This document shows, piece by piece, positions 3,001 through 52,333 of a stretch of DNA of 64,000 nt (positions within the stretch are counted from its first letter, which is position 1; the number at the start of each line of letters is the position of its first letter). The notes under the pieces are model-generated. The model was not told the DNA's origin. It saw only the letters and a list, made by a program, of their open reading frames with translations, and made no database searches. A program made the position numbers and the translations under genes. The DNA comes from Lingula anatina (lineage: Eukaryota > Animalia > Brachiopoda): the NCBI GenBank assembly GCA_051362555.1, contig JBPQGU010000016.1, positions 1,488,001-1,552,000 of the forward strand, in the 5' to 3' direction.

Positions 3001-4349
3001 TATGACACTTCGATTCTCATATTGAATAATGGCTATCCCTTCATCCACTTACTGTATACATCACGTTGGTCATTTCAGAGGGAGAGCAGGCGTTCCTTCA
3101 CGTGAGCCCCTCGTGCGGCAAACCCCCTCCTTACGGCTTTCTGGGTGGCCATACCCGGACTTATTACATCGCAGCGGTGGAGAAGCGATGGAGTTACGAC
3201 GGGGGTTCCGGATTGAACGGATACGAACGTGGATTAGCTTTCCTCAAAGACCCAAGCCAGTAAGTGGTCTTATGGTGTTGCCCAAAATCGTCTCAAACCG
3301 TTTCCATAATTGCAAGTGCAATTTATGTTGAAAGATTTTGTAATAAAAAAATGAATAATGTATAAGAACATCATTTGGTATGAATATTTCTCTAATTACA
3401 GAGAGTCCAGCAAATACTTTACAAAAAATTCAAACCGCATAGGCGGTACGTACTGGAAGATCTTATATGAAGAGCATACAGACGACACATTTACGACGGT
3501 AAAACGAAGACCACTGTCCAAATACCATTATGGTCTTCTTGGCCCCGAGATTGCTGCCCAGACAGGAGACACTATTAAGGTATGGTATTTAGTCCTGCAA
3601 GGCCTGCTTCATAAAACGTCTGGAGTCCTTTTATTGGGTTATCAGGACCTTGACGACTGCGAGGTGTTTCAAAAATGATCTTAAAGGCAGCTCACCTCTT
3701 TTTAGTCGGGCTTTGAGCAGCTAGGGGGCAATTAACATCAATAAACACGACAGTTAAATACACCCCAGCTGCTCGAGGGAGCGTGACAGACAATTAAACC
3801 GATTTCACATATTGCACTTAGCGTGAATGCCCCCAAAGTTGGGTCGATCAATGTAGTCCGATGGATTGTATGGGAATTGGGTCTTCGTAGTTACAGTAAT
3901 CCACGTGGTTGTGTCTAATACATTGTTTGTGGGTCAGTCATTTTGGAGATCTCGTAGACGATACTGTAATGTCGACATTGCATAGTTTAGAACACCAGAA
4001 CTTAAGATTATTTGCGAAACAGATACAGGGTAATTTTCTAACTTTGGTCTCTCTGGATGTAGCCTAATATGACGGTGACCTACTTATAACTGTGATCAAA
4101 TCTACAGTTTCAGCATTTTCAAAATCTGATATCCAGAGAAATTGATGGCGAGAAATAAATAAATAAATAAATAAATAAATAAAATAAACACAGAAGCTAG
4201 ATTGTCACAGCCTTTCTGCTTTCTGTTTACAGGTTGTTTTCAAAAACCTTGCGCCCAGCTCGGGAAGACGATTTTCCATTCATCCTCGTGGAGTGAAGTA
4301 CGACAAACAAAACGAGGGAGAGGATTACAATGACGGCACACCAGGTGCG

Positions 4350-4380
<31 letters not shown>

Positions 4381-7094
4381 GGTCAATGTTTTTGAATACT
4401 ATTTGGACTACGCTATTAAAATAGCGAATTTTGCCTATGTCACATTCCCTCAAAATCTCAATGGGCCTTACAAATTAAAAGCGAAAAACTACCAATTGTT
4501 TATTAAAAGTCTATAATGACGGAACACCAGGTGGGTCAAGTTAATTATAATAGTTTTTTCAATGGCGCATTCCATTAAAATCTCAATGCGCCTTACGAGC
4601 CAAGAGAGAAAAATTACACATTGCATATCTTTAGTCTAAATTCTACGAATCACTATTTATAATGAATATATATTTATAGGAAGAAATATTTAATATAATT
4701 AAACTTTTTTTATCAATTACTATATATTTAAACTTAAGTATAAGGTCTACTAAAATTTTACAAGACATTTGCAGTTCTTACATCAGTAGGTAAAGTACTT
4801 CGTAACTTTGTTGCGTACATTATATAATTCCATTCACCAAAAATTTGTATTTGCCCTTCACCCACAGTAAGCACTGATCACCAAATGACGCAGAAATTAT
4901 TTGGCACAACCAAGCTCCTTCTCATAGAAGTTAGAGCAAAAACAATTAAAGAAAACGCCTTTGCAAAATCTAAAACCCACTAAATATATGCAAGTTTGAT
5001 TTATAATTCCTTATAGCTTTACCATTTTGTTTCCTGGTTTCACTCATTTGTTACTGTGCATTTTAATCTGACCACTTATTTTAAATAAGAGAAATAGACT
5101 TGCCATATCTTTTTCTACAGGAATTATCGATCAACTCTATCAAGGGAAAGAGAAAACTCAATTATTATTTGAATGGTGAAGGTGTTATTTTTTATTATCA
5201 TTCTAGACGGTGGAGTGGGCTATCAACAGACCCGTACCTACACGTGGACCGTGCCTGAGTCCTACGCACCTGAGCGCGCAGATTCAAAATGTATCACATA
5301 TATGTATCACTCCGCCATTGACCCAGTTAGAGATGTGTTCTCAGGTCTGATTGGTCCGTTGGTTGTTTGCAGACGAGGAGAATTGGCAAGGGTAAGCGTT
5401 CTGACAGCAGAGGCGGTTTTTGTACTAGTAGTTATTAACCGTGTGATCACTGTTTTTGGTACAAATAAGATGTACTCTTAAGACACATTTTTAATTCTAT
5501 ATTCACATTATTTTGAGGGAAAAAAGCATATGTCACGATGCCTGTTCAGATTTTTGCAGTCTTCGCATATTTAATACGTTCATTTTTTTGTTTTACTGAT
5601 GCGTAATATATAAAAAGGGTTTATAAAAAAGCAAATATCATCAACTCTACTTTATATGAACACTTCTAAATTACCTTTCAGCGAGGCATGGAGTTCACTC
5701 TGCTCTTCGCCAATTTCAACGAAAACCTGTCATGGTTACTGGAGAAGAACATCTTGGAGTTTGCCTCCTCCTCTGCATCGAGCTCGCCCGGATTTGAGGA
5801 ATCAAATATCATGAGCAGTGAGTGTTTTTTCTGACTAACTTCTTTATTTGATTCATTATAACATATGAATATACAATAATTGGCTTTGATTATGTTCACC
5901 TCGGGGATATACAGGTGCTGGAACCGAAGACGGTATAATTGAACAACGCCGACGAAATTTTGTCCTAAAGAAAACGCATATCAGTCTATGTAATATAATC
6001 ATTTTAGTTCTTATTCTCTTATACCATTTAATATTCTATTGTCTTACCATTTTATGGACTCTACTGGGTAGGTGAATCTACAATCTTTTGATTTTAATTT
6101 TGAATTATTATCCTTATAATTACTATTATTTAGGCATCAACGGATATTCGTATGGCAACCTGCCTAAACCAACAATGTGTTTAGGAGATCAAGTGACATG
6201 GCGTCTGCTTGCCATAGGAAACGTCATTGACATGCATATCCCTACCTTCAGTGGCAACACGTTCACGAGATTTGACGGGAATACGCGAGACGCCGTGTCC
6301 CTGTTTCCCGGTACAACAGAGACAATCTCTATGAAAACTGTAAATAAAGGTAGACGCCAATGTTACTTGTCAATGTCAAACAGCGAGAATTTTCAATGTT
6401 TCAGACCGATTTGTCTATTTAAGTTGGTAAAAAAGAAAATCATTTAAATAATATTTAAGATACGCAGGACACGGTTGTTAGAGATGACGTTTGAAATTGT
6501 TGCTGTCAAAAATAAAAAAAGCATACTATATATGCGACACACTGGTGACAAACTATGCATTTTCTTGGAATCCACTTAGCCGAGATTCCAAAAAGCATCT
6601 TGCCTAGATATATACCCAATCTGCCCCACTTTGTCTTTCACTGTGATATATTTATCTATACCTTGCTATCTGTAGGAATATGGAGTCTGATAGACGCTAG
6701 CGATGACAACAATGTGGCCGGAATGGTGGCGCTCTACAAAGTGGATCAGTGTCATTTCTTCCTTAAGCATCCTCTTGCACACTCGGAGAAAGGTATGTAA
6801 AATGCGTGTTTATATTAAAAGTTTTTTGTTTTATAACTACATTTGTAAATGTCAATATTAACGCGATATATGGCTTGAACTCCTGTCTCGCTGAAAGTCG
6901 AGCTGGACTTGCATATATCGCTTGGGTGTCAGTATATTATCTCATATTAATCTCTCATACCCGACATATGTTCTCTGTGTCATAGGCATCACTCGTACGT
7001 ACTATATAGCCGTGGTGGAGAGAATGTGGGAGTATGCGCCATGGAGATTTGACCTGATTCTCGGAAAAAGTATCACAGACCCTTCCAGGTACCT

Positions 7095-7146
<52 letters not shown>

Positions 7147-10100
7147 TTTAACGTCAAGAATGATCATAATGATTATCATGTTCTTGAAAAAATAATAACA
7201 ATAATAACGGCGAAATTTCTGGTAAATCTTATCTCAATATAAACATTTTCAGTAATAAAAAAATATGTATATGGAATCTAAAATAAGAGCAAAATGACTG
7301 AATGTCCGCTCTGAATCAAAATTTGATCCATATGATCCAGGTACTGTGGCATTCCTTATGTTTGACCGACTAAATAGAGGGCTGAATACATCTACTTTTT
7401 CTTAAAAAAAAAAAAAGATAAAATAATTACTCCTGTTTCTACTGCTATATCTTGGATTCAAGCAAATCTAACTTTTGAGTGGCTGGATTCCCATAACTAG
7501 ATCGATCAAACAGGATCGGTCCATCTCCAAGGGGTTTCTCGCTAAATTGCTTTCAGCTTAAGCGGCTCAATGTCTGGTACGCCTACTAAAGCGGCTAAAC
7601 GATAGTTATTTACCCCCTATCAGCCATTTAAGCCGCTTAAGTTAGTTGCAATTTAGCGACAATCCCCTAGGAGATAGATCTACCCAAAGTTAGTACGATA
7701 GGGTCTGGAAATGGTCTCTTATTTCCAGTACGATGTACGTGTTTGCTCGTACTGATTGGCCATTCCTTGGTACCCGGTATAAAAAAGCTTTGTACAGAGA
7801 GTACACGGACGCCACCTTCACCGTGGAAAAGACTCGAAGTCCCGAGGAAGAACACCTTGCTATCATGGGGCCTTTCATAAAAGCAGAGGTCACAGATACC
7901 ATCAAGGTTTGTTTTTTTTTTTTTTTTACTATTGTTTCACGCTTTTTTGTTTCTTTTTTCTTTACCTCAAACAAACTTTACTATAATAACTCTATGTAGG
8001 AGGTCTATATTTCACAATAAAAACATTGTGAAATATAATATATTCTGTTTTACGACAAAAACAGCAGTTATAGCTATTTTTCTGATATATTTGAGCTTGT
8101 CTTCAGACCACGTGACCTCCATTGATGGCTATATTCTGTTATAATCTCTTAAGAGATTTTAGCAAAAAAACAAACTTTTTAGAAATAAGACAGGGACTAA
8201 CTTTGAATGTACAAATGGATTCATTACCCATTGGTAAGTATGGGAAAATTGTTGTTTACTCCAGGAAAATTCATTTTTTGGCCAAAACGAAGAGTTATTA
8301 TCCCTTTAAGGAAACACGAAGTACCTTGAAAGTGCACTATCACACCTGTTTTTAAAACTGTTCTTTTACTAAACCAAAAGTAATCCATAATCATGGGTAG
8401 GTTCTTTGCAGACAGTATATAGTACGATAAAGCAATGTTTATTTTGTTAACATTTGATATGAGGTAAACATACACTCTGTCGTCTCTAAAAACATTTATG
8501 CTGAAAACGCTGTCCTATTCGCATGCCAGCGTTCTTCATATGTCTTTTCTTTTCTGCTGTCTGTTTTCAGGTCGTATTTAAAAACATGGCATCGCGCCCG
8601 TACTCAATTCACCCCAACCTTGTGATGTATTCCAAGGAAGACGAAGGCCACGCCTACAAAGATGGGGTCAATGTAACAGCGGGAGTGCCCCCTGGTGGCA
8701 TAAAAACTTACACGTAAGCTTCCTAGTCTTAACAGATCTCGGCCCAGAGAGTATAGATAGTAAAATGAATGAATGATTATCTGTTTTATTGTAAAATATG
8801 GAGCAGTATGTAATGGCAAAACTGAATAGATATTAGTATCCAAGTACAGTGTATATACCGGGCACTCCATACAAGATGACACTACACTACAATATGATTA
8901 TATAATACTAATATATAACCATATAATTAACCAAGATGAGCAGCCTATGTTCATGTAACATTTTTCTTGAATAAGAGAAATAGCAATTAAAATTTTAAGG
9001 CAAGTAAGAAAAGAAAGCTTGCCCAGAGGAAAATAACATAAATAAATACTACCTTTTTTAGATGGGAAGTACCGAAATCCTCTGGTCCTGGCAAAAACGA
9101 CCCAAACTGTATCAGCTCTGCCTACCGTTCTGCTGTTAACTTGGAGAAAGACTTGGCATCCGGTATGGTTGGACCTATGGCTCTTTGCAGGAAAGGTAAA
9201 TGCATGAATTAAATTAATTAATTTATTAGTTAATAAACTACGGGTAATTAATGCCCGCCTTAAAAATGAAAGTCTTAAAAAAGAACATATGTACAGTAGT
9301 TATCGTTACCCTTCACAATTAAAATTAGTGCTTGGGCAACAACCACAATATCGGCAGTCATATAATTTAAAACATTTCATCAGTTTTATTGAATGAACGG
9401 TGTAAATACATTTGAAAGCCACAAGTCAAGTTAAGGAAGTAAATATGTAATGTGATTATTCGTGTGCAATGAGAACGACTGTCATTTCGCACTGCGAAAA
9501 CAGAAAACCGCATCCATTGGAATGCTTTTAATGACGAGCATGTTGTGTTTTAAAAATAAAATCAAACTTTAGTTTAGATTTTTACGAATTTAAATCAACT
9601 GACATTGCTCCAGGTACACTCTCCGAAAACAAGCGTCGCGATGTGGAGAAAGAAATCGCTACATTATGGACCATATTCGATGAGAACGATAGTTGGTATC
9701 TTGACGAAAATATCATGAGTCATCCACAGTATCCCGGTTTTTTGCCAGACAAGACTGACGCAGAATTCCTAGAAAGCAACAGATTCCATCGTATGTAACT
9801 TATTTTTTCCTTGTTTTTTATTTTATTCATTTCATTTGTTTATGTGACCCGAATACCTTAGGAATTCTACGTATAACGTGATAATAGACAATTTATTTAC
9901 CTTTCTTTCTTCTTCGCTTCCTTTGTTTACACGGTAGATTTGTCCCTACGGGACTTTCCTATAGAACCTTGCGGGACTCCGCAAGAAACCTTCAGGTCTA
10001 TATAGGAATTAAATCAGTCCATGGGACGTTCTATAGGTTCCCTATGTAAAAATGTCTTATAGGGTCCTATATGATTTTGGACCAATTTTCTTTGAATTGG

Positions 10101-11028
10101 GGTTTTACAGGGCGCTATAGAAAATGTCCGTAAGAGTGTGTAAATGTTTCTGTTTATGTTTGGCTCCTGAGCGATGATGTTGATTATTTAAAAATGTATC
10201 TGAATAATTTGTTGTTGTCTTTTCCATGATGAAGCTATCAACGGGCTTATCACGGCCAGAGACCCAGGGTTTAATATGAAGGAATGCGACCTCGTGGCCT
10301 GGTATTTCATTAGCTTCGGGGGTCGCGTGGATATCCACACGGTGCACTTTCACGCGAACTCGTACATCTGGAACACGGAGAGCGCACACAGAGGAGATAC
10401 GCTTGAGGTAATATTTTAGTGTTTGTTTGCATACATTTTCCAGTTTAACAAGAATCAAAGCCCGCTTAGAACCGCAGTCCGTTTCTATATTATTCATCAC
10501 AAGTGACGTTAGTCTGATTTGTCCCATACTGACTCAGACACTTCTCTCTAACCATATCCTGTGCTAATGCATTATGGGATCTTGGACTTCCTTTACTTAA
10601 GACTACCATTCCTGCGAAACCGTAAGCAAGCAAGGTATTTGGCCATTCTCCAAAGATAAAAGCGGGTAATTGCCTTTGCTCAATATTCCTTGAAAAAATT
10701 GTTTGATGCTGATCTACAAATCACATAAAACATTCTTGTAAACCGTTGTTCCAAGGCGCAGTTCTTTCCAGAAAGAATTCCTCTCCTATATTTTTTTATT
10801 TATGATTTTAAAATAGTGAATTCCACATTGCATGCTCTGTTACTCCTAAATTATTCAGTAGTGAGAGTAGAAACGTTTATTAATACTGTGAACATTTGTT
10901 CACCACGTGTTTTATTGTGGGGACTTAATATTTTACGCAACAACTACTGTCTTCGCAAAGCTGTGCATTTTCGACTGTCAGATGTATAGATCGATATTCG
11001 GTACATTTGTGTACGCGTACACACACAA

Positions 11029-11068
<40 letters not shown>

Positions 11069-11088
11069 AGGGACATATAGAAGGATGA

Positions 11089-11127
<39 letters not shown>

Positions 11128-11416
11128 TTTTCCAAGGCATTGACGTTCAGTATTTGGTGTGGCAGCACCAGGAGAATGAAATCTACTGCCTTTGCTATTC
11201 CGTCTTACAAACCATTGTTTTAAGAAGGAACTCAAGACTGATCTTTTAAAGACGTTTTATAAATGTTTTTTTTTTAATATTTTCTAAATATTTTATTCAA
11301 AAGCCCCCCTCAAGTGTAATATTTTAAATATTCTGTATAAGAATTTTAGATTTATAATATAATTTATCTCCAAAAAAATAATGTATTATTCTGTAAATTG
11401 CAGACATGAAAGTTTA

Positions 11417-11447
<31 letters not shown>

Positions 11448-11643
11448 CCAAGGCACTCTCCCATTTTTACAGGTATTTCCCGGTATATTTGAAGTTGCCA
11501 CAATGTTGGCAGACGACCCAGGCTCATGGTTGATGCACTGTCACGTGGACGACCACGTGGGTGCTGGCATGATTACCCAGTATTTAGTCGAGAAATCAGA
11601 AGATCCTGTGCAATGCTCCAGTGTGGATGATGAGGATGCATAA
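1..11643 (+). CDS. Ceruloplasmin/hephaestin-like multicopper ferroxidase, copy A (5' part outside window; end of domain 1 through domain 6)
   Basis: Manually spliced exons: <1-37, 872-980, 1667-1867, 2689-2795, 3079-3259, 3402-3579, 4233-4344, 5207-5391, 5682-5817, 6134-6349, 6676-6792, 6986-7088, 7729-7906, 8571-8713, 9062-9195, 9614-9790, 10235-10407, 11473-11643 (TAA). Phases are consistent and every complete exon length equals its copy B counterpart. Motifs: [36 protein letters not shown]. Ends ...[10 protein letters not shown] with no transmembrane segment. Confidence 0.95.
2390..2607. mobile_element. MITE family 1 (~220 bp, PIF/Harbinger-like termini), copy
   Basis: Ends GACCCCATTCCCAGA..TAGATCGATCTA / TAGATCGATCTA..TCTGGGAAT, with TAA/TTA-type flanks. 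The same element occurs inverted at ~26848-27073. Confidence 0.75.
7096..7145. repeat. (AAT)n microsatellite
   Basis: Seen directly. Others at ~20270-20330, 22098-22148, 25680-25716, 40834-40878. Confidence 0.95.
7483..7718. mobile_element. MITE family 1 related subfamily, copy
   Basis: Palindromic core CGCTAAATTGC..GCTTAAGCGGCT / AGCCGCTTAAG..GCAATTTAGCG. An inverted copy lies at ~37779-38022, with partial copies at ~18408-18500 and ~3700-3885. Confidence 0.7.
11020..11127. repeat. Compound (CA)n/(GA)n microsatellite
   Basis: Seen directly. Similar tracts at ~13395-13428, 41024-41205, 60433-60512. Confidence 0.95.
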
Positions 11644-13390: not shown

Positions 13391-13429
<39 letters not shown>

Positions 13430-13521
13430 CACTACGACACAGAAACGGACCGGATAATGAACTTTTGAAATCAGTGGAAAGACAAAAAAAAAATGCATGG
13501 CATAAAAGAACCATCGAGCAA

Positions 13522-16600: not shown

Positions 16601-17545
16601 TTCACCAGGGTCGAAGTTTTTGTCCTTAGGGCCATTAGACAAGAGAACCCATGACCTAAAGCTGGCTTTAAAACTTTTATATCAAATCATTTTGTCTTCA
16701 TTTATCAAAGATAGGAGGTGATAGTTGCTCATTTATATTGACATTGAGCCTTTAAAAAGTAAAGTGATGACTGACGTTTTTCATGGGTTTAAATTATTTT
16801 GTATTGAAATGAAGAACAATTTTCGGCGGAAGTGTCTCTGTTAAATGAATTGAATCCTTGCACGCACGTATTACAAAAACAAATTAATAGAGAGTTCATT
16901 TTTAGCACTTTTCCTTGTTGGCCTTGAGAAATTAATTTTTTCCAATCTTGACAAATGATCAACATAGAGCCTGGATATATTTTAAGCAAACTGCTCAAAC
17001 TGGTTGTTTGAAAGCAAAGAAACGCGCCAACTGTTTAAGGGAATTAAGGTGGTATGCCTCGTTGTCCTCCTAAGAATGGGTTACTTATACTAGTATTGGG
17101 GAAGACATATCATTCGTTGTCAAGGCAACATGAAGAAGCATAGGGCTCGTCTCTACCCCAGGTCAGCTGAGGATGACGTCATTTCATGGAAAAAAAAACA
17201 GTCCAGAAAGGTGAACAGCCAGTGGATGACCAGAGGAATTTTTATGGATTTGTTCTGGAGTGTAGCATGTGACTATTTGTTATGATGATTTTGAAAATCT
17301 TATGTGGATTCGATACATCCCTTTATTACAATGAATGACGCATCTAACGCGTTTTATAAGTTTTTAACAAGCATCCTTCAAAGCTTTTACTTTAGCAAGG
17401 AGCACTGGCGTATCCGTCTTGGTTGACTATCACAAGCCGACAGCAAGATTAAACTAGTCCTTGACATTCTTGTGCATAAACGTGACCGCTCTCGTATAAT
17501 TAGTTCAATCAGGGAAACGTCCATATCCCAGACATACAGCACTCA

Positions 17546-17793
17546 GGGCCCAGTTTCACCAACACTGGATAGCATTATCCTATGGATAACACTATCCACT
17601 GGATAGAATTGTTATCCTCTACAAAGTTATCATGAGGATAGCAGCCATTTTTCACCACCGGGTAGTTATGTCAGAGACAAAAATAAGTATTTAGTGTTTA
17701 GAAAACATTACTTAACCCACCGGATAACAATTCCATCTAATAGATAATGTTATACGGAGGACAGCGCTGTCCACTGTTGATGAAACTGGGCCC
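17546..17793. mobile_element. PIF/Harbinger-type MITE
   Basis: TIR GGGCCCAGTTTCACCAACA / TGTTGATGAAACTGGGCCC, flanked by TCA/TGA (TNA target). Internally palindromic. Confidence 0.8.
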
Positions 17794-17939
17794 TGACTGT
17801 TTGATTTGTTATGATACAAATATTTTCAAGACAAATATATTAGAAACCATGCAAAACACATCTATCTATCTATCTATCTAGCTATCTATCTAGCTATCTT
17901 TTTGATTATTTTCTCAAATGTTTCAGGAATTTAGTGGGA

Positions 17940-20267
17940 ATGGTAATGGCAGTGGCATTAATTAGCGAAGTTGCACATGCAAATATTTATAACCAGCAAC
18001 CGTGGTCTCCAAACGTAGCGGGGAACTCGGGCAATTTCTTCTTCAATGCGGGAGCAGCGCAGGCCCCCAACTTCTTGTCACCGTGTGTTAGTGGAAGCAG
18101 TTCCTCGTGCAGCAACCCCGGTCCTAACACTGGTGGCTTGCCCTCCTGGATATTTGCCTCACCCAACTCCCCCACGACCTCGGCCCCACGGTCAGGGCAG
18201 GCACCGCCATCTAGTGGAGCATGTGGGATATTCCCTTGGTTATGTCATGGTACCAATCCGCCGCCATCCTCAGGACCAAACGTGGCACCGCCGCCGTCTA
18301 CAGTAGCGCCTCCGCCGCCGCCAAGTTTTTGCCAGCAAAACCCGTGGGTGTGTCGTGGCCAAACTGCTGCCCCTCCACCAACAACCATAGGTAGGAAAAA
18401 CATTTAAGGGACGATTCCCAGACCCTATCGTGCTAACTGTGGATCGTTCTATCTCCGAGGGGATTCTCGCTAAATTGCAATCACCTTTAGCTGTAAATAT
18501 GGCTGTCCTCTTATCCATTATAATCCTCGCCGATTCTTAGGCTAGTTCGCTTGTTCCTCTTGATTACGTCTCATACGTAGGCCTACTGCACTTGTTTTTA
18601 AATCCTCATTTGTACATGCACATGATTAGTCAATATAGACGCGCTAAAATCGGTGCTCAAACACCTTTTCATATTATTCCTAGTATCGTTAACAAATTTG
18701 CTGGACGTAATGGATAATAAGATGAAGACTATATGCTCTGCCCAGGAACACTATTAACAAATATCATTATGCAAAACACTGTTGAAGTGATGTGTTTCCA
18801 GTGTAGATGATTTTCATTACAGCAATTGCTCCATCGACAACGGAGCCACCTGCAGTGAATTCGCTGTGTGCTATAATTCCATGGACGTGTCCGTCACAGA
18901 CGCAGTCTCCCCAGTCTACAACAACTACACCTCCACCCCAAGGTATGCATGAGCCTGAACATAACACACACGCGCACGCACGCACACGTATGCATTCCTA
19001 CACGTCATGCATGAACACTTCTGACATGTCACTTTCAGAGTTTTTAACTTACTGAAAGTTTCCATTTTAAAATGGACCTTTCTATTTCAAATAATATTGA
19101 ACCCAATAATCGATTTGAAACTTTACATCCACTATACAAATTTACCTTTTTGTAACAGGTAGGTATCTGATAGGATATATTAAATTAAACACATCGGTAT
19201 ATTGATTGAGCCGTTCTACCTCATCCATTTTTGCTTTAGTAATACTTTTTTTTCCAAGTCAGTATCTTTCAAAGGATGGGGTATTACAATAATGTCATCT
19301 TCGGATACATGGCATTGTTAACTTACATTGGTTCCGGAGAAAGCACTGACATTGATATATTCCACTTTCAGCTCCGGGTGGTGCCGCATGGAATCCATGG
19401 TGCTGGTTGTCCCCAGGGCTGTGCTCAACACTCGGTGCCACGCCCCCTCCAACAACTGCCGCCCCGCCCCCAACAACAGCAGGTGATACCCATACCTCAT
19501 GCTTACTTTGGCACCGTGTCATAATTATACGAATGTACTTCATAAAAATAAAAGCAAACTAATTTTCATTGGAATACAAACAGGCAATAGTACATTATCG
19601 TCAGGTACCTTCTTAAGCCACACAGACAAAAATGTATGACAAATGGAGGAGTGGTTTGCTTGATCACAGTATGTGAAATTGAAATGTTTGCAAATGGTAA
19701 TAGGTTTGAATAGAAAGAAAGACTACGTTTCAGTTATGTAATTTATTTTCAATTGGCAATAGGCAATAGTGTGTATACTGGAATCGCGATCAAAACCCGT
19801 AACCTACATAACCGCATCCCGCCCACGTTTGTCGTTTGAAATGCAAAAGTATAGCAGTCCAGAAGTCCGCTTCACGTACAAAATATTTGATCGCCATTTT
19901 TTCCAGGTGATAATCCCCTGTGTGCGTTTTCGCCAATGTTCTGTCCGCAAGGGAACCCTCCTTCCGCTGCGGCTCCTAACACCGGTACACCGAAGCTCGA
20001 TTTCTTAAGTTTCAGTTTTTACAAATAAAACTTAATTAAAGTGAGGTATTGACAAGAAACGCAGTTTGTAATTATAAAATAACTATATATTTCAATTTAT
20101 TATCAAATACTACTTTGATCACAGCTTAATTATTTATTAATGTTAGCGATGTAAGGATGTTGTGCGTATTTTGAAATCTGTCAATCGTTTTCAGGAGCAG
20201 CCTTTCCATCTGGTGTACAAGCCAGCGGTTAGTATGTTTGTATGAAGACACTTGTTCATTTTGATCT

Positions 20268-20322
<55 letters not shown>

Positions 20323-22095
20323 GTAATAATAAAACATAGCATATTTGTAATTGTCTGATGCGTATGCTGTCTGTTTTAATGAGTTTTTGTAATAAAAAAC
20401 ACGTGAACAATTATCAGGACAATGACAATATTTATATCTTATACATTGATTATTGTTATTATTATTATTATTATTATTATTGCAACTTTTTTTACCTGTG
20501 TGTGTGCCCTAATTAGTAAGCAGTACGACTATTAAAAACGAAGAAGATAACTACTTGTACAGTCCTGTTGTGACAGGAATGATAGCCCTAGGAGTCCGGG
20601 CCCAAATGATTAGTACAGATGAGGGTTTGTCGGATCATTGAGGTAGTCGGACGAGTGCCACCTCTACAAAGTAATGAGGAACGGTCAACGGTTCCGAGCT
20701 GACTACAATTCCTGTAACATCGGTTCACTTCTGCACACAGAATTTTTGATTGCGTTTGCAAAACTTTTCAGTGGGTTTTCTATGTCGAGTTTTGACAATC
20801 GAGCTTTTTAAATATCTTTTATTAACTAAAAATAAGGAAAACATAAGTGATTGACAGACCATGTATGTGTTGGGAAGAAATGGAAACTTGGGCCCTGGAC
20901 TAATCATTCAATAGCTTTGGATGATGCTAACGTCTTTTTATGTTTTAGGCCAATAATTTTCGTCAAACGTTCTTACGAAAACCAAACGTTTATACTAGGT
21001 GAACTTAAAGTTATTGGGAGAAAGCCACACCCACATTTATTTGAAAACTTAAAATTATGTCTGTCATGCATTTTGCAGCTGCCCATGTCCGCCATTACTA
21101 TGTAGCAGTCAAGGAGATAGACTGGGACTACGCCCCGCTGGGAAATCAAGTACACAGTCGTCTAGACAGGTATAGGGCCTTTGGACTTCCAACCCTGGTC
21201 GTTGACTGCTAAGTTTTGACCTAAGTTTGAAATGATACGATTTTGATTATCTAAAGGTTGGATTTTAAAGTTACGTAGATATATAGGTTTAATTTTTATT
21301 ACACGCATTATTAGCACGCATGGCTGATAAATGGTGAATCTAAATTTACTTGTGTATAACTCTTATTATTAAGTCGTCAATTCAATAATAACTGTTTTGT
21401 CATCTTGTCATCTTGTCTAGAATTCAAGAAAAAAAACTTTATCACGCTTAACAGGGATTGACGCAATATGTAACAACTATTCATTGTGCCATATGACTTC
21501 ACGCACACGTGTTTTCAGTTTTGCCGCCAAGTACCTTGATACTTCTGATCCAAACAGTTTTGGGAAGGTGTTCAAGAAAGCTGTATACAGGGAATTCACG
21601 GACGATACCTTCACACAGGAGAAGCCGCAGCCGAGCCATCTCGGTACGTTTACTATGTTGTGCATCGTATGCAAAGCAGAGGGTGGAGGGATGGTGGAGG
21701 AATTAGGGGATATTATACCAGGGGCGGATCCAGGATTATCTGAAGGGGAGGTCCGGAACGACAGGCATCGCCCCCTTGGTGTGGAGTTCGGGGCCTGCTC
21801 AAGGGCTCCGAATTTTTTTGTGTTTTGGAGAGCAAACTATGCCCTTTAGTACGGTTTAGCTTCTATGAATTAGCTAGTCAAATTTCTGATTTCAAAGAGG
21901 GGAATGTTGGTGTGATATGTTTTTCAGAAAACGAAGGGGGGGGGGGGGGAGTCAGGACCCCCTTGAACCCCCCCCCCCTCTAAATCCGCCACTGTCTTAC
22001 AGTAGTAGTTGAGAAAGTTGTGATTATGGTTCATAATTAAACTAAGACGAAATAGTTTTACATATATTTAACAAAATTGTCACAACGACCCTGTA

Positions 22096-22150
<55 letters not shown>

Positions 22151-25100
22151 ACACGCTGTAATTTTTAAATATTTTTTTTAATTTAATCTTATTTTTTGAC
22201 GTTTAAGGTCTACTGGGTCCTACTATTCGTGGAAATGTCGGCGAGGTCATGCGGATCAAATTTAGAAATATGGCCACTCGGCCCTACACCGTCCATCCCC
22301 ACGGCGCCGCCTATGTGAAAAAACACGAAGGTATGCACATGTTTAAAGCCGCATTCAGATCAATGGACTAAACAATTTGAGGGTCAAAAATGGTGACCAT
22401 TTATATATATGCTTGCCGGTTAATTCGCTAATAGGCATTAAAAAGATTCCCCGTGTAGTGGGGACGTATACAAGAGGGTCGGCCATAATTGACCCTCGGA
22501 TTAGTTATTACAGTGTTCTGAATGCAGCTTAAAACCGAAAAAGAGCTTCATCTTGTATAAATCCTTAGAATGCCCTTTTCTCGATGACAAAAAGAGACCA
22601 TGAAGAAGCAATAACAGTTAGAACGCTAAATAATTACACCATAACTTTCTCTTGCCGCAAAACACCAGTCGTACGTTATATGGCAAGCCAGCAATTATCA
22701 GAATTTAACCTATTGTACAATTTATGGTATATGATTTGTAAATTATATATATCCGTAACACTTGTATTCCATTTTAACAGAACATTTGAGGCTTCTTAAT
22801 GTTCATAGTTAATTTTTAATTTTGATGTGAACTTACATACTTTTACAACTTGAACCTTTGGGTACCAATGATTTTGATAAAAGTTATTACTGCATTATTA
22901 TTTAAACATTATTATTACCACTAGGGGCGCTGTATACGGACGGTACGTCAGGAGATGACAAACTGGACGACATGGTCAATCCAGGACAAACCATCACTCT
23001 GGACTGGCTGCTGTCTAAGGAGCATAGGGGCGCTCCTGCCACGGGGGATCCCAACTGTCTTCCCTGGACCTATCACGGTCACTTGAACCCCATTGCCGAC
23101 GTGCAGTCGGGCCTCATGGGAATCTTGTTGATATGTAAAGAAGGTAACTGTCATTTGCCGGTAATCTGTACTTCTTATTTCACTTGTTCATAAAATGTAC
23201 TTCTGTTTTGTATGGGGTTTTTGAGAGAGAGACAAAAAAACAAATTTTTAAAAAAATCTGATGGCGTTTTTATTCATTTATCAATTTACTTTCATTCAAA
23301 TATTTGTGAATGTTTGTCATGATTATTATGTAATGTCATATATTTTGGGAAATCATTTAAGGCACCTTGGACGAGGATAACGTACGGCGTGACGTGGACA
23401 AGGAGTTCATATTGCTATCACACATCATAGACGAGTCGATGAGCTGGTATTTCCAGGAGAATGTGGCCAGGCAAGTAAACAGCAATAAAACATCTGTATG
23501 AAAACTGTTAAAACTCACTTAGGGCCTTTACTTTTAAATTTCTGTATGTAGTTTGGCACAGTGCAGTGTGCAAGCTGATACTCGGTGTGTACACGTCTCT
23601 AATTGACGTCATATATGACGTCACTTGTTATCACCTTCACATTATTTTTTTGTTCTTGTGTTTTATTTGCTACCTGTACATGGTTCCAACCTTTCTCAAA
23701 CAGGGATGCCCGCGTTGCATGCCACGCGATGTGAAAACCTACACTTGTTATATTCACTTTAGCCACATAGTTCTCAGTATTCTTACTCATTTGCAGATTC
23801 GCACCTCATGCGGACCAGAATTCTCCATCGTTCGCCACCAAGTTCCACACCATCAACGGCTACATCTACGGGAACGTCCCTGGCTTGGAGGCTTGCTCTG
23901 GTGACAGAGTGGCGTGGCATATGATAGGACTGGGCAACGAAGACGATCTTCACCCCCTGACTATCAACGGTCAGGTACTGGAGTATAACCATCACAGGTA
24001 AGGAAGGGGGGTAGGGAATAGGTTGGGGGGGAGGGGGGGTGGGAGTAGTTTTTGCGGGTTCTCAAGATTCGAAACATCTGGGGGTGTTCTCTTGATTTCA
24101 AACGTCTGAAATCATAAGAAACCCCCACCCCAAATCCACAATCTTAATGTCAGGTGGAAATCGTCACTGGAGACAGTCTTCGAAGCCTCGTGGCCCTGAC
24201 GATGGTGGTGGTGGTTGGGGGGGGGGGGGGGCTTATTGTCTCAACACAACGCAAATCGATCTTTGTTACCTTTACGAGTAAAACATATATAGCTGTATCG
24301 GTAGATTTCTCATTTATTTTAATTATTTGCTTATCCTTATCCTCTGTTTCATTTACTTAAAATTTCACCTGCCGTACGTGTGTTCGTTTCGTCCGTTTTT
24401 ATCGCACTATTCTTTCAAACTGTTGTATACAGGTCATGCACCTATACCATTGTATGAACTATAGTATGTATACACTTTATAAAGATGTAAGTTTTCGTTA
24501 TTTTCAGAACCGATGTAATTGCGCTGTTTGCCGCCAAATTCTCTGCAGCGTATATGACGGCGGGAGATGTTGGAAAGTGGATTATCAAATGTCAAACGGC
24601 TGATCATCATTTTGGTAATCACGGCAACACACCATGTACATGCATATAAAAGTCGCTCTGGCATGCGTTTCGTATCTTATTATTGTCCAAATTAGCAACG
24701 GAAAAACCCCTTTTTTCATATCCACTTGACTGTGTTACACAAGGTACAGAACCATTGTACGAGTATGCCTTGCAAAATAGAACCTTCAATCAGCCTACTA
24801 AGACTCTCTATCGTGCCGTAGAACGTCGATTACCAAGTTGAATTTTGGCTGAATACATCACGTTGGTCATTTCAGAGGGAGAGCAGGCCTTCCTTCACGT
24901 GAACCCCTCGTGCGGCAAAACCCCTCCTTACCATTCCCTGAATGGCCAGACCCGGACTTATTACATCGCAGCGGTGGAGAAGCGATGGAGTTACGACGGG
25001 GGTTCCGGGCTGAACGGATACGAACGTGGATTGGCTTTCCTGAATGATCCAAGCCAGTAAGGGAACGGTGCTCTGTATGCGTTATGATACACAATGGACA

Positions 25101-25676
25101 ATAGAAGTGTCACCCCTACTGAACCAATACTTTAGAGGAGATAAATGACTGTGGAATGATATGCTCCTAGTATCATTTTATTAACATCAAACTTAACAAA
25201 AAAATGTAGACAAGGCATTATAACTACTCAAGATCTGTCTAATTTATTTAATGATTACTAGATATTTATTTGATTAACCTGATTCAGAGGGTGAAAATTC
25301 TATTGTCCATTGTGTGTAGAACAGATAGGGAAGCACATTCAGCCATTCTCTAGCAAATTCATCATTTTTAAAATAAATATCACCGTAAATGAGTCAAATA
25401 TACAGTATATCAAGTAGAAGGATGAAAATGTCCATTTTTTCTTCGAAATAACAATATATAGCTCTTATTCTAACCTGTAAATCTTTATTAAACGACTTAA
25501 AAGTAACATTACCTAAGCACTGGATCTGTTAAAACAATATCCCCTCACAGTTGTGTTACGTTAACGAGATGGGTTCACTGAAACCATGGAGAGGTCAACC
25601 TTAAAAAACCCACTTACGCTGGCGTTGATCAACTTTTATCACATTTTTATGAATTTTTGAATTTTATTTCGTGTTA

Positions 25677-25717
<41 letters not shown>

Positions 25718-28700
25718 GGACCAAAAGCGACAGAAAGTCAGGGCAACAACTACTTGTACTATGTATAATACAAACATTAAGTTTAAATATGTTTGCAATT
25801 ACAGAGAGTCCAGCAAATACTTTACAAAAAATGCACACCGCACAGGCGGTACTTACTGGAAGATCTTATATGAAGAACATACAGACAGCACATTTACGAC
25901 CGTAAAACCAAGACCACTGTCCAAACACCATTATGGTCTTCTTGGCCCCGAGATTGCTGCCCAGATAGGAGACACCATTAAGGTATGGACTTTAGTACCG
26001 ATGTTTGTTTGATAAAAAAAAATCAGTAGTAGGCTGCTAGCAACGAGTCGACTGAGGCACGTACGTTTCGCAAAGTATCTTTAAGTCTGCTTATCTCTTT
26101 TTCTTCGGGCTTATTGTTAAGTCTTTAGATCAAACTGTGTTGGTTGTGACAAAGAGTTTTACTCTTAGTAATGACAGTAAACCATTTTGTTGGGTCCAAT
26201 ACATTTACAGTCCTTCTGAAGAGCTCGAAGACTGTATAGCAGTGTACATTGTGTTCTTAAGCCCCAAACCAAAAATTGTTTGTGAAACAGGTGCAAGGTA
26301 TATTTATACCTTTGATCTCTCTGGATATGTGCATAAACATTTAAACTGTGATCAAGACTAGTGTCAGTATTTTCAAATCGTAATATCCAGATTAATTACC
26401 GGCAAAAATAAATAAAGAAATAAATAAACACAAAAAATCACATTAATTCTCACCTTTCCTGCCGTGTATGCAGGTAGTTTTCAGAAACCTTGCCCCCAGC
26501 TCGGGAAGACGATTTTCCATTCATCCACGTGGAGTGAAGTACGACAAACAAAACGAGGGAGAGGATTACAATGATGGAACAGCAGGTGCGTTGTTGTTGT
26601 TGTTGTTGTTTTTGAGTACTACATGTATTTGGACTACGCTATTAAAATAGTGAATTTTGCCTATGTCACATTTCAGCAAAATCCCAATGGGCCTTACAAA
26701 TCAAAAGCGAAAAACTACCGATTGTTTATTTTTAAAAAAGTCTAAAGTCTGAATCTAAGGCACACTGACTACATGTATAATCAATGTTTATTTAAAGGAT
26801 AACTTTATCAATTACTAACGGTATTTGCCGTTTAAAATTGTAATTCTAAGACCCCATTCCGATAGATATTAGATCGATTTATCCCTGTGGAGAGTCTCAC
26901 TAGATTACTGTCAGCTTAACCGGCTTAAGCGTCTGTCCCGCCTACTAAAAGCTGTAAGTGGGTAATTAACTATGGTGCTCGCTTGGCGGACTGCAATTTA
27001 GCGTGAACCCCCAAGGAGTTAGTCGATCTAAATCTTAATCTCTGGATCGATCTAAATCTCTGGGAATGCACCCTAAAATAATCTCAATTTCTTTATATGT
27101 TACTTGCAATTTTTTTTATCAGTAGGCAATATATTCCATAATTTTGGGATATTTTTAAAAGTCCCTTAGAATGTGCGTTTGCCCTTTACCCACAATGCTT
27201 GCTGATCTCTTGATGGTGTAGAAATTGTTCCTATGATAGTAAAGATCAAGGTCACAAGAGAGTAGGTGTCAACTCACCCCACTGACAGGGAAAAAAACTT
27301 CCAGTCTAAATATGAAGTTAACGGACCCAAAAATAATTTCTTTGGGACATTTGGGGTATTTATCTCTCCAAATATTTACACTCTCAAATATGGAATAGCA
27401 TGTTCAATTCTAAGCAAATTTTCCAACCAGGCCTTATGGACTAGAAAGAGATACTTGGATTTCTGTTTGAATGGTGAGTTTTTTTTCTTAATTTTCATTC
27501 TAGACGGTGGAGTGGGCTATCAACAAACCCGCACCTACACGTGGACCGTGCCTAATTCCTACGCACCTGAGCGTGCAGATTCAAAATGTATTACATATAT
27601 GTATCACTCCGCCATTGACCCAGTTAGAGATGTGTTCTCAGGTCTGATTGGTCCTTTGGTTGTTTGCAGACAAGGAGAACTGGCAAGGGTAAGTGTTCCG
27701 ACAGCAGAGGCCGTTTTTGTACAAACGGCAAGATCCACGAAAGATGCAGATAAGATACGTTCGTACCTAATATTATGTTCACGTAATTTAGAGACAAAGA
27801 ACGGAGCATATATGAGCATATGTCAAAATGCCTGTGCAGATTTTCTAATATTTGTATATCGATTTCAGTTAATGATATGTTTTACCACTGCGCGCTAACA
27901 AACATGCATTTTATAAAGAAAAAAAAAAAAACTTTTGAATTACCATTCAGCGAGGCAATGAATTCACTCTGCTCTTCGCCAATTTCAACGAAAACCTGTC
28001 ATGGCTACTAGACAAGAACGTCTTGGAGTTTGCCTCCCCTGCGGCTCCGAGCTCGCCCGGATTTGAAGAGTCAAATATCATGAGCAGTGAGTGTTTTCCA
28101 CTACTGTTAAAACTAAGGTCTTATTATAAATCACATTTCATATGAATACAGCCCGGAAAATTCGTTATAATGGTAGTTACATTCTATCAATAAATTTAAC
28201 AGGGTATGTAATGGTCTGTGTGCAGGTGATGTGGTTAAGCAACTTACTTAAAAGATTATCCATTTTATCGATGATTTATTCATTAATACATCCACTTATC
28301 TTAAGAATCAGCCATCCACTTTATGTGCTTACCTTGAATATACGACAAACCTTGAGGACTTCCTCTCCAACTTTTTGGTTATAATTTTGATAAATAAAAA
28401 GGAACCAAAAATCCTTTTTTTCTTATCTAGGCATCAACGGATACTCGTATGGCAACCTACCTAAACCAACTATGTGTTTAGGAGATGAAGTAACATGGCG
28501 TCTGCTTGCAATAGGAAACGTCATTGACATGCATATCCCTACCTTCAGTGGCAACACGTTCACGAGATTTGACGGGAATACGCGAGACTCCGTGTCCCTG
28601 TTTCCCGGAACTACAGAGACACTCACTATGACAACCGTAAATAAAGGTAAATTGAAATGTTACTTGTAATTTAAAGTTCATTGTTTCAGACCTATTTTTA

Positions 28701-28939
28701 TTAAAGTTTTAGTTAAGTTTTTTTTAAAATAAAATTCATTAAAAACAATGAATAAGTTATTCAGGATGTAATTGTTGGGGTTAATGTTTGATATTGTTGC
28801 TGTCAAGGTACGAAAACAGCATACTATATATTCGACCCTTCAGTGTCAATTTACTTTTTATCCACTTAGACGAGATTCCAATGAGCATTTTGTTTATTAG
28901 TAGGTAGATTCCCAATATGCCCCAGTTTTTCATTAACTG

Positions 28940-28998
<59 letters not shown>

Positions 28999-29031
28999 GT
29001 AAATATGCCGGATTCATATGGAATATATGCC

Positions 29032-29088
<57 letters not shown>

Positions 29089-32000
29089 GGTATATATTAC
29101 CCTTGGTTTATGTAGGCACATGGAGTCTAATGGACGCAAGCGACGACAACAATGTGGCCGGAATGGTGGCGCTCTACAAGGTGGATCAGTGCAATTTTTT
29201 CTTTACTCCTCCTCTTGATAGCTCAGGGTCAGGTATGTTAAAGGCGTGTTTGGTATTATAGATTTAATATTTTACCAACTTCCGACTATAATTTCAATTC
29301 TAACACAGTCATTTTTTTAACAAAACTCGATATATGTCTTGAACACCTGTCTCGCTGAAAGTCGAAGTGTTTTGGCATATATCGCTTGGGTGACAGTGTA
29401 TTATCTCATAGGCCCTACTTATCTCTCATATCTGGCATATTTACATTGTGTTCCAGGCATCACTCATACGTACTATATAGCCGCGGTGGAGAGAATGTGG
29501 GAGTTTGCGCCTTGGAAATTTGACCTGATTGTCGGAGGAAGTATTACAGACCCTTCCAAGTAAGTTGTTTGTCATAATAATGATGATCATAGTACTGGTA
29601 ATAGCAGTGATGGTAATGACAATTTAATTGTGGTAAGAATGATGATGACTTGATATCACTGTTGATGTGGACGATAGTGGCAATAATATTTATAATGGTA
29701 ATGTTTATAATGTTTTAACATAATTAAAATTACGTCAGTAATGATAATGGTAATTATGATCTTGAGGAAAATAATATCAAAATAATAGCGATATATTTTG
29801 TTCAGTCTTATCTTCATATGAACAGTGTCAGTTGATGATAAATAATAGATTTAACCTTTTTCGAAAGAATATACGCCCGTTCTAAATTAAACTCGACAAG
29901 GCCGATTTTTTCTGTTGCTTTAACTGAAATTAAAAGGAGAAAAACTGAACTCTGAGTTGTTCAAATATTTAGTATGATGTACACGTTCGCTCGACCTGAC
30001 TGGCCGTTCCTTGGTACCCGCTTTAAAAAAGCTCTCTACAGAGAGTTCACGGATGCCACCTTCACCGTGGAAAAGATTCGAAGTCCCGAGGAAGAACACC
30101 TGGGTATCATGGGGCCTTTCATAAAAGCAGAGGTCACAGATACCATCAAGGTTCGTTTCTTCACAATTTTCTGTTGTTTCAATCTTTTGTACCTCATGAA
30201 ATATATTTACTTTAAAAATACGAGGGACCTTGGAAACGCACTTTCACGGGAGTTTGTAATATTGTTCCTGTATTAAATCAGTAACTATATATATGTACAG
30301 GTATTTTGCAAACGTTAAGGCAAAAGCAGAATGTTTTTAACATTTGATAAGTAATATGAGGTTTACATGCAATTCATTAATTCTGTCTTCACTTCAGACA
30401 TTGACGCTAAAAATACATACAAATGTTAGCCTAAGGATTTTCTTTTCTTCTTCCTGTTTTAGGTCGTATTTAAAAACATGGCGTCGCGCCCGTACTCAAT
30501 TCACCCTAACCTTGTGATGTATTCCAAGACAGATGAAGGCCACGCCTACAAAGATGGCGTCAATGAGGCAGCGGGGGTGCCACCTGGTGGAATAAAAACT
30601 TACACGTAAGCTTCATCACCCTGGTTTAACAAAAAGTAATGTCAATTCCCTGGCTTAATTGATCAGGATTTCCATACGAGTGCTGCAGCACTGTTCCTGA
30701 TAGGTTAAGGCGCGTGCAATTGACTGTGTAACGTTGGTAACTAAGTTCGTAATCAGGGAAGCTGACTTATGTTTTTTTTTCTCTGAAACGGTGGCCTGGT
30801 CTTAATCACACACACACACACACACACACAGTATACAAAGTACTAGTAATTGCCAATGTTCTTTTAGATGGGAAGTACCGAAATCCTCTGGTCCTGGCAA
30901 AAACGACCCAAACTGCATCAGTTCTGCCTACCGTTCTGCCGTTAACTTGGAGAAAGACTTTGCTTCTGGTTTGGTTGGACCTATGGCTATTTGTAAGAAA
31001 GGTAATTGCTTAAATGTTATTTATTTATTTACTTATTTATTTATTTATTTATATGTTACCACCTCAGGGATGAAACACGTAAAAATACAAATGAATCAGT
31101 GCTCGGGCAACAGGCACACACTTGGCTGTCATATAATTTCAACCAGTCCATCGGACTGATCTTATTAAACGGTATACCGGGGTACATTTATTTAAATGCA
31201 ATAAGTCAAATTAAGGAAGGAAATAAGTGACTGAACATGCAACTGTGGAACTTCCGGATAACACATTAACCGACCTTATTTGTGTGTCATAACAACAAGT
31301 AGAGAAGACAGTATCCAATGGCCGGTGGAATGCTTTTTAATGGCGAGACTGTTGTGCTAAATCAAATGAAGATTTTGTTTTAATTTTATGTCTCTAAATA
31401 AATTAACATTGCTACAGGTACACTTTCTGGCAACAAGCGTCGCGATGTGGAGAAAGAAATCGCTACATTATGGACCATATTCGATGAGAATGATAGTTGG
31501 TATCTTGACGAAAATATCATGAGTCATCCACAGTATCCCGGTTATTTACCAGACAAGACTGATGCAGAATTTCAAGAAAGCAACAGATTCCACGGTATGT
31601 AATTATATATTTGTTTTTTTTCTTTCTGTGTTCCCCCTTAATTTGAATTTAATTAAAATCACTTCGTTTGTTAATTTGACTCAAATGCTTTCGAGAATTC
31701 TACAAATTCCATGGTAATATAAAATCTGTTTATGGCATAAGTGCTACAAGAACCTGAAGGATTTTGGAACAATTTTCTATTTAGCCGTGTAGGATAATGT
31801 ATTCCATGAAGGAATTTTTTATTTATGACTAGTTAGTTCCTGGGAGATGGTGTTGATTTTGTAGCACAGCTTTCTGATTCAACGTTGTCTTTACCTCATT
31901 GTAGTTATCAACGGACACATTACCGCCAAAGACTCAGGGTTTAACATGAAGGAATGCGACCTCGTGGCCTGGTATTTCATTAGCTTCGGGGGTCGCGCAG

Positions 32001-32895
32001 ACATCCACACGGTGCACTTTCACGCGCAGTCGTACATCTGGAACACGGAGAGCGCGCACAGAGGGGATACCCTTGAGGTAATACTTCGTATTCGTCTGCA
32101 AAAACAAAACAAAACAAAAAAAAAAAGACCAGTGCGACAAAGATGGTAGTCCGCCTATTCGATCTGTGGTCCGTTTGTTACTAGATATTTTAGATATTCG
32201 CCCTTTTAGGCTCACCCAGATGCTGCCAGATTTTAATCCTAGAATTAACCTTTGCATGACCGGAAATAGCAGTGCACATGCATATCTAGACCAGAATGCA
32301 ACACGCATAACGTGGTGCATGCTCATCGTTATCTGTGGAAAAGTGCGTGTGCTTATGCTTTATATGGGATCTCAGACGATCTTTCACAGGACTACCATTC
32401 ACGTCACACCGTTTAAATTTCAAGTAAACGTAAAGAGGCCAGGTTTGAATTTACTTTCTTTTGGTCATTATCTTAAGGTATACGCCTTGGCTCAAAATTC
32501 CTTGAATAAAAGGTTCAGTACTTTTCTTTCAATCCTCATCTACAATATCACATAATGCATTGTACCAAGACGCGTCCATTTTCCAACTGAATTCATTTGG
32601 TACCGAGAAAAATGTAATGCTCGGTTATTACTAAAATCAAACAGTGAGATAAGAAATTATTAAAATTATTATTATTATTAGTAGTAGTATTAATCATAAT
32701 TAAGGTGTTCTCCCATTTTTACAGGTATTCCCCGGTATATTTGAAGTTGCCACAATGTTGGCAGACGACCCGGGCTTATGGTTGATGCACTGTCACGTGG
32801 ACGACCATGTGGGCGCTGGCATGATTACTCAATTTTTTGTCGAGAAGTCAGCAGTTCCTGTGCAATGCTCAAGGGTGCATAACGCGAATAAATAA
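17940..32895 (+). CDS. Ceruloplasmin/hephaestin-like six-domain multicopper ferroxidase, copy B, ~1323 aa, secreted, with Pro/Thr/Cys/Trp-rich N-terminal extension
   Basis: 26 exons: 17940-18390, 18823-18942, 19372-19482, 19907-19984, 20195-20227, 21079-21169, 21519-21643, 22208-22330, 22925-23143, 23362-23470, 23797-23997, 24508-24614, 24876-25056, 25805-25982, 26474-26585, 27504-27688, 27951-28086, 28431-28646, 29116-29232, 29457-29559, 29973-30150, 30463-30605, 30868-31001, 31418-31594, 31905-32077, 32725-32895. They sum to 3972 nt in one frame. Trinuclear-cluster motifs HPHG, YHGH, HTVHFH and [12 protein letters not shown] are present. Signal-like [14 protein letters not shown]. The exact start is uncertain because an acceptor at 17926 implies an upstream exon. 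Joining the first five exons to the oxidase rests on phase compatibility (all phase 1). Confidence 0.92.
21719..21994. mobile_element. Non-autonomous DNA transposon, CAGGGGCGGAT termini
   Basis: CAGGGGCGGATCCAG ... TAAATCCGCCACTG with subterminal G-run/C-run. No clear TSD. Confidence 0.7.
26848..27073. mobile_element. MITE family 1, copy in opposite orientation
   Basis: Internal sequence is the reverse complement of 2390-2607 (e.g. GAGTCTCACTAGATTACTGTCAG, GTCCCGCCTACTA). Confidence 0.75.
28943..29087. repeat. Interrupted (TA)n microsatellite
   Basis: Two (TA)n runs separated by a ~35-nt spacer containing ATATGCCGG twice. Another long (TA)n lies at ~35580-35650. Confidence 0.95.
30618..30797. 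mobile_element. Dispersed MITE-like repeat (second copy at ~39301-39516)
   Basis: Shared core CACTGTTCCTGATAGG ... TAACGTTGGTAA[C/T]TAAGTT ... TGAAAC in introns of two unrelated genes. Confidence 0.6.

Positions 32896-52301: not shown

Positions 52302-52333
<32 letters not shown>

Follow-up and report, generated by a model that had tools for sequence, protein, structure and literature searches.

A young hephaestin-like oxidase duplicate in Lingula anatina with a predicted proline-rich N-terminal extension carrying five two-cysteine motifs

Copy B, the downstream member of two tandem hephaestin-like oxidase genes in a 64,000-nucleotide stretch of Lingula anatina DNA (contig JBPQGU010000016.1; hereafter the window), is predicted with good confidence to be spliced to five upstream exons that encode a proline-rich extension with five cysteine-bracketed motifs (Table 1). 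For the product of this gene we propose, with a probability of roughly 0.4, a soluble ferroxidase that is fixed to an organic scaffold by a flexible, multivalent tether.

Table 1. Positions of the features discussed, counted from the first nucleotide of the window.
Feature	Position	Strand	Remarks
Copy A (tandem paralogue), 3' part	1..11643	+	17 full exons from 872
Domain-2 axial Glu region, copy A	2689-3259		
Candidate upstream exon (1 of 15)	17130..17161	+	in frame to 17927; would give the signal peptide a basic n-region
Extension exon 1	17927..18390	+	acceptor 17927, ATG 17940, extra Cys pair, motifs 1 and 2, phase-1 donor
Motif 1, CGIFPWLC	18222-18245	+	residues 95-102
Motif 2, CQQNPWVC	18330-18353	+	residues 131-138
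Extension exon, 120 nt	18823..18942	+	phase 1-1, AG/GT-bounded
Motif 3, CAIIPWTC	18867-18890	+	on the 120-nt exon
Extension exon, 111 nt	19372..19482	+	phase 1-1, AG/GT-bounded
Motif 4, CWLSPGLC	19401-19424	+	on the 111-nt exon
Extension exon, 78 nt	19907..19984	+	phase 1-1, AG/GT-bounded
Motif 5, CAFSPMFC	19921-19944	+	on the 78-nt exon
Linker exon, 33 nt	20195..20227	+	phase 1-1, AG/GT-bounded; read-through past the donor leads to TAG 20230-20232
Copy B oxidase core	21079..32895	+	21 exons, six cupredoxin domains, no transmembrane segment
Domain-2 axial Glu region, copy B	24508-25056		
Lipocalin-like gene	52014-54180	+	one of four related genes
Lipocalin-like gene	~57850-55900	-	one of four related genes
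Lipocalin-like gene	62164-59750	-	one of four related genes
Lipocalin-like gene	63660-end	+	one of four related genes

When modelled from AG/GT boundaries, the reading frame of copy B runs stop-free from ATG 17940 to TAA 32893-32895 through 26 exons and encodes 1323 aa. The model needs one GC-AG intron, at 23471, and copy A has the same at 981; a gene finder that accepts only GT donors would split the gene at such an intron. The phase-1 exons of 120, 111 and 78 nt and the 33-nt linker exon, as described in the initial annotation, are all present, and the frame stays open from them into the oxidase. The five extension exons have a GC content of 53-67% as compared with 27-39% for their introns. 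Scored with matrices trained on 36 donors and 37 acceptors from homology-confirmed exons, the extension splice sites rank in the top 0.3-12% among all GT/AG of the window, and their scores (donors 3.6-10.5 bits, acceptors 5.3-11.0 bits) lie inside the training range. A signal peptide of about 14 aa is predicted from extension exon 1. Since the acceptor at 17927, 13 nt upstream of ATG 17940, is strong (98th percentile), position 17940 is probably not in the first exon of the transcript. There are 15 candidate upstream coding exons within 11700-17900, and a non-coding first exon upstream of 17927 is as possible as the coding candidate listed in Table 1. Neighbouring genes in the window likewise show acceptors shortly upstream of their ATG. 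A short inverted-repeat element occupies 17540-17799, upstream of extension exon 1.

All four internal extension exons are multiples of three, and the last donor fits the phase-1 acceptor of the exon that encodes domain 1. This donor, at 20227, scores 6.3 bits, which puts it in the 96th percentile and on a par with the training donors. No convincing signal-peptide exon was found in 20228-21078, nor any remnant of the copy A signal exon in 11650-21078. As copy B is intact and evolves under purifying selection, it needs a first exon, and extension exon 1 is the available one. One could also read the proline-rich exons as a gene in their own right, whose product, a small secreted repeat protein, would comprise about 265 aa and end at TAG 20230-20232, in which case copy B would start from another first exon or be a truncated duplicate. 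The stop codon lies one codon past the 20227 donor and is followed by AATAAA at 20328 and 20391, but this hexamer is expected anyway in an intron of 32% GC, and the best alternative for a signal-like exon there, at 20422, is an (ATT)n microsatellite. In line with an independent gene, the modules seem older than the split between copies A and B, a fusion of this kind occurs in none of the best 120 of 574 homologues, and no RNA so far connects the extension exons with the oxidase. Four of nine RNA runs under the species label, of unspecified tissue and with 9.5-12.4 million records read in each, were mapped to 15700-20260, a stretch without a positive control: the extension exons received no reads, and the coverage there is confined to two intronic repeats. 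Against the separate gene stand the quality and correct phase of the 20227 donor and the intactness of copy B under selection, and we regard it as unlikely. A dispersed intronic element at 18405-18505, which is also found at 7621 and 37781, attracts RNA reads from other loci.

The part of copy A inside the window is identical to the RefSeq protein XP_013383741.1 (hephaestin-like, Lingula anatina) in 867 of 872 residues (99.4%), which identifies that entry as copy A. A query with the domain-1 exon gave a single relative among 37 candidates, again XP_013383741.1. As seen from this entry, the signal peptide of copy A is directly followed by domain 1, and the extension is absent. Copy B agrees with copy A in the length of each of the 16 internal exons that were compared, in the copper ligands and in having no transmembrane segment. 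The two proteins share 88% identity across 1062 aligned residues, the introns align as well (~75%), and in a tree of 23 sequences the copies are sisters with a support of 1.0, the deeper nodes being weak. Over 868 codons we obtained a dS of 0.236, a dN of 0.051 and a dN/dS of 0.22 (bootstrap 0.16-0.29). By these measures copies A and B arose by a young duplication and have evolved under purifying selection. That they represent alleles was rejected, as they are 10-12% apart at the amino acid level versus 0.6% for the copy A of the window and its RefSeq counterpart. Copy B is absent as an entry of its own among the best 120 of 574 homologues; it may be unannotated, or it may be the third member of the XP_013383741.1 cluster, of which two of three members were read. 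A second copy of the extension was not found 3' of copy B within the window.

The core of copy B is that of a ceruloplasmin/hephaestin-type oxidase, as the initial annotation had recognised: an alignment with 14 homologues shows the catalytic set of domain 6 intact. Full-length alignment to XP_013383741.1 and three-fold ceruloplasmin matches resolve six cupredoxin domains in three pairs, and Pfam reports Cu-oxidase_3 and Cu-oxidase_2. Both copies keep the eight His residues of the trinuclear cluster in domains 1 and 6, with the four HxH pairs aligned to those of the 14 homologues, as well as the His/Cys/His/Met ligands of the domain-6 type-1 copper. Taking the ligand list given in the accessible portion of PMC3738974 as a reference, we also found the equivalents of ceruloplasmin E272, E935, H940 and D1025, which belong to the domain-6 iron site, kept in both. 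The copper site of domain 4 is lost in both copies (Cys>Asp, His>Asn), and two of the four iron ligands of that domain are gone (His>Ser, Glu>Arg). The type-1 copper site of domain 2 retains His/Cys/His and has an axial Glu in both copies, a residue found there in none of the 13 other homologues. Since the domain-6 and trinuclear ligands are kept and the domain-4 site is lost, copy B is predicted to be a working oxidase with a single iron site, at domain 6. It thus has in common with vertebrate ceruloplasmin (PDB 1KCW, 2J5W) the six cupredoxin domains, solubility, the trinuclear cluster and the domain-6 copper and iron ligands, but differs from it in the missing type-1 copper and iron site of domain 4, the axial Glu of domain 2 and the presence of the extension.

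The initial annotation had considered the extension to be a multivalent anchor that replaces the transmembrane segment of hephaestin. A tethering role is plausible, but the replacement of a membrane anchor is not borne out: copy A has neither the transmembrane segment nor the extension, and the anchorless state therefore predates the duplication. Both copies end in an aligned hydrophilic tail of 15 residues, and in copy B the maximum 19-residue hydropathy in the protein is 1.28, which argues against a C-terminal transmembrane helix. Vertebrate hephaestin and HEPHL1 (zyklopen) share the core, with 41-43% identity to copy A, and are likewise immobilised ferroxidases, but they are anchored by a C-terminal transmembrane helix that neither Lingula copy has. 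A hydrophobic tail is present in 44 of the 121 sequences examined, and all nine named mollusc homologues are devoid of it. Judging from these comparisons, and because the sister copy A is already soluble without it, the extension accompanies an enzyme that was soluble beforehand and is not a substitute for the transmembrane segment.

The five cysteine-bracketed motifs of eight residues were all found where the initial annotation had placed them, on the plus strand. Their common form is C-x3-P-x2-C; the P-W pair that had been emphasised is restricted to three of the five. A sixth pair of cysteines, at residues 49 and 57, brings the total in the extension to 12. When the extension was shuffled 100,000 times, four or more motifs never occurred, as compared with the five observed. 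The 264 codons upstream of the domain-1 exon comprise 20% Pro, 13% Ala, 12% Ser and 9% Thr (Pro, Ser and Thr together 41%), and with no Lys and two Arg the extension is almost uncharged. Hydrophobic residues are concentrated in the motifs, where W/F/I/L/M/V make up 15 of the 30 inner residues versus 2-4 residues per linker. From one motif start to the next there are 36, 35, 35 and 32 residues, even though the internal motif exons comprise 40, 37 and 26 codons and the position of the motif shifts within the exon. This regularity despite unequal exons, together with the hydrophobic and aromatic interior of the motifs, suggests selection on both the spacing and a binding face, the spacing being read from four intervals only. 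AlphaFold models of the extension are mostly disordered and of low confidence (mean pLDDT 50.5 and 60.0; disulfides not reported); the helices they contain are short, two of them at motif 1 (pLDDT 71) and one at motif 2 (block pLDDT ~82). The binding to mineral that had been suggested for the extension is weakened by the occurrence of only two acidic residues in the 251 of the mature extension and by the absence of any S-x-E site. For the same scarcity of acidic residues an acidic mineral-binding domain was rejected, and a furin-type propeptide was rejected because of the lack of Lys and the two Arg.

The motif proved to be unlike described domains, as initially supposed, in pattern, profile and family searches. 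Outside the oxidase core it is absent from all of the best 120 of 574 homologues of XP_013383741.1; 119 of these 120 have at most 82 residues upstream of domain 1, and the exception, a sea urchin model with 203 residues, is not Pro-rich in this region. Six pieces of the extension matched no Pfam family at an E value of 10, CBM14 and Mucin2_WxxW included. Against the PDB sequences the motif profile and two extension exons gave no match, and extension exon 1 gave three compositional ones (E 0.078-5.5). The extension was found in none of 2596 candidate proteins of 264-2000 aa in a search of a set of 5.8 billion. A 32-position profile, short and thus of little power, had no match among 1.84 billion representatives, and the ESM Atlas gave no usable match for the extension; for so short and biased a motif all these searches are weak. 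None of three ORFs had an exact match in databases, and the literature searched contained no paper on the motif patterns or on an N-terminal Pro-rich extension of such oxidases. Apparently, the extension module has not been described before, and as judged from these searches it is so far restricted to a single young paralogue of one species. The C1-C2 segment of the extension bears some likeness to the first two Cys of fibrillin-type EGF domains. A calcium-binding EGF domain was rejected, as each module has two Cys and not six, the mature extension holds two acidic residues where an acidic calcium-binding start would be expected, and neither Pfam nor PDB gave a match at E 10; a minicollagen-type cysteine-rich domain was rejected on the same ratio of two Cys to six and the lack of a sequence match.

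At the DNA level the modules resemble each other slightly more than codon shuffles do (z 0.7-4.2 for the ten pairs among motifs 1-5). A recent duplication of the module exons is therefore less credible than it had appeared, as the modules are barely alike while copies A and B differ by a dS of only 0.24. Since the modules are far more diverged than the two copies, the motif array probably predates the A/B duplication, although quick divergence of low-complexity sequence could imitate such an age. Its origin probably lies in an older repeat protein, from which it came by exon shuffling or gene fusion, or else it was ancestral and was lost from copy A.

In the scenario that we favour, copy B, a tandem duplicate of the soluble Lingula hephaestin-like oxidase, would have the five upstream exons spliced onto it across the predicted 20227>21079 junction. 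The uncharged Pro/Thr/Ser chain of some 250 residues would serve as the tether, and the five two-Cys motifs would close through intramolecular disulfides into small hydrophobic loops. These loops may bind a scaffold of chitin and protein, in the shell or in another cuticle, by aromatic stacking, and weak binding sites would add up across the repeat of about 35 residues. With Fe(II) presumably oxidised at domain 6 and O2 reduced at the trinuclear cluster, the bound enzyme would oxidise iron on the spot, so that it is trapped there, or would act on catechols instead. Against this tether speak, among other things, the lack of a match between the motif and any chitin-binding family (Pfam, E 10), the absence of Trp from the P-W position in two of the five motifs, the low confidence of the structure models, and the RNA, homologue and shell-proteome results given above and below.

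The oxidase family is known from the Lingula shell. Two shell-matrix hephaestin models appear in the accessible part of the 2015 report by Luo (PMC4595640): 24135, which has 421 aa, is enriched in the mantle and is acid-insoluble, and 24136, which has 648 aa. The first 421 residues of copy A (46.9 kDa, pI 6.0) and its last 648 (72.9 kDa, pI 5.36) match these models in mass, pI and composition as far as that text gives them, and copy B fits less well. From this comparison it follows that the shell-matrix hephaestin of 2015 is most likely copy A, the copy without the extension, and not copy B. The portion of the 2026 Lingula shell proteome at hand (PMC13425148) contains no hephaestin and none of three test peptides.

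If the fusion is real, the Cys pairs might instead form intermolecular disulfides by which the enzyme is built covalently into a polymer, by analogy with nematocyst walls. The presence of 12 Cys in a Pro-rich chain that is otherwise disordered would agree with this, as would the regular spacing, and cross-linking through polyproline and Cys-rich domains has been shown for Hydra CPP-1 and minicollagens, according to the sections available of PMC6910907. Moreover, model 24135 was found acid-insoluble without the extension, so that, on the available text, the oxidase family does end up in the insoluble matrix. The cnidarian proteins, which are secreted and structural, resemble the extension in having short Cys modules on polyproline, but these modules are terminal, have six Cys each as opposed to two, are joined to no enzyme and do not match the extension in sequence. 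In addition, the fixed six-residue, Pro-centred hydrophobic loop would rather suggest a closed loop with a binding face, and we therefore consider the covalent route improbable.

Again presupposing the fusion, the extension could be a tag that sorts or retains the enzyme, e.g. in a secretory granule, in mucus or in an egg coat, and would then not be an anchor to the matrix. Its content of Pro, Ser and Thr and its near lack of charge are reminiscent of mucin-like stalks, copy B has left no trace in the consulted parts of the shell proteomes, and the four lipocalin-like genes of the window each have, behind the signal peptide, an insert rich in Trp, Pro and Gly. In one of them (63660-end) the core of motif 1 recurs as GIFPWL, with codons that differ at third positions, but a six-residue match of this kind may be due to chance (0.016 expected). 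To the tag we assign an even lower probability than to the covalent cross-link. For one exon of the lipocalin-like genes Pfam gave a match to Lipocalin at an E value of 0.0025, which is below the cut-off.

The tether reading has a precedent in the chiton radula, where, in the part of PMC6351634 available, a hephaestin-like protein with a predicted chitin-binding domain is proposed to oxidise iron while chitin-bound. The idea of a matrix-bound ferroxidase is hence already in print, whereas the C-x3-P-x2-C module is not, within the literature searched. The chiton protein is also a secreted ferroxidase, for which chitin binding through an aromatic-rich module has been proposed, but by its description it is set apart from copy B: it has one predicted beta-sheet type-3 chitin-binding domain instead of two-Cys motifs repeated along a Pro-rich chain. 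According to the available text of PMC7533068 and PMC8476170, hephaestin-like proteins also occur in coral skeletons and in the chitinous tube of a worm, and metal trapping is guessed to be their function. Accessory modules have been added to other invertebrate hephaestin-like proteins too, but these are C-terminal and unrelated in sequence to the extension. Cnidarian members (P0006, P0030) bear ShK-type Cys domains (PF01549) at the C-terminus, P0094 has a similar tail, and a Gigantopelta protein (P0080) ends in a Ser/Thr-rich tail of 281 residues.

As far as the consulted parts of these sources go (PMC7533068, PMC8476170, PMC6351634, PMC4595640), the role of hephaestin-like oxidases in the skeletons of corals, the brachiopod shell, the tubes of tubeworms and the teeth of chitons has been a matter of guesswork. 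A pair of enzymes with 88% identity, one tethered and one not, would be a natural experiment on the placing of a soluble ferroxidase in a biomineral matrix, and would also inform on how new matrix proteins originate through exon shuffling. If loops of eight residues indeed bind chitin or a matrix protein, they would constitute a very small binding module. A bolder and, in our estimation, doubtful extrapolation is that the C-x3-P-x2-C loops, 35 residues apart on their Pro/Thr chain, are an undescribed minimal brachiopod matrix-binding module. Shuffling of phase-1 exons would have spread it, and several secreted proteins would use it as an address tag, among them the lipocalin-like protein of the window that has the GIFPWL hexapeptide; its capture by the young ferroxidase duplicate would have made a scaffold-bound isoenzyme, with a valency tuned by exon skipping.

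Elsewhere in the window, a gene for a secreted protein with two thrombospondin type-1 exons (43725-44572) and an N-terminal portion assigned to no family spans 38535-~47250 on the plus strand. A pair of 0.7-kb inverted repeats at 45313-46994 encloses a putative transposase remnant. A tandem array with a period of ~147 bp extends over 48511-49626.
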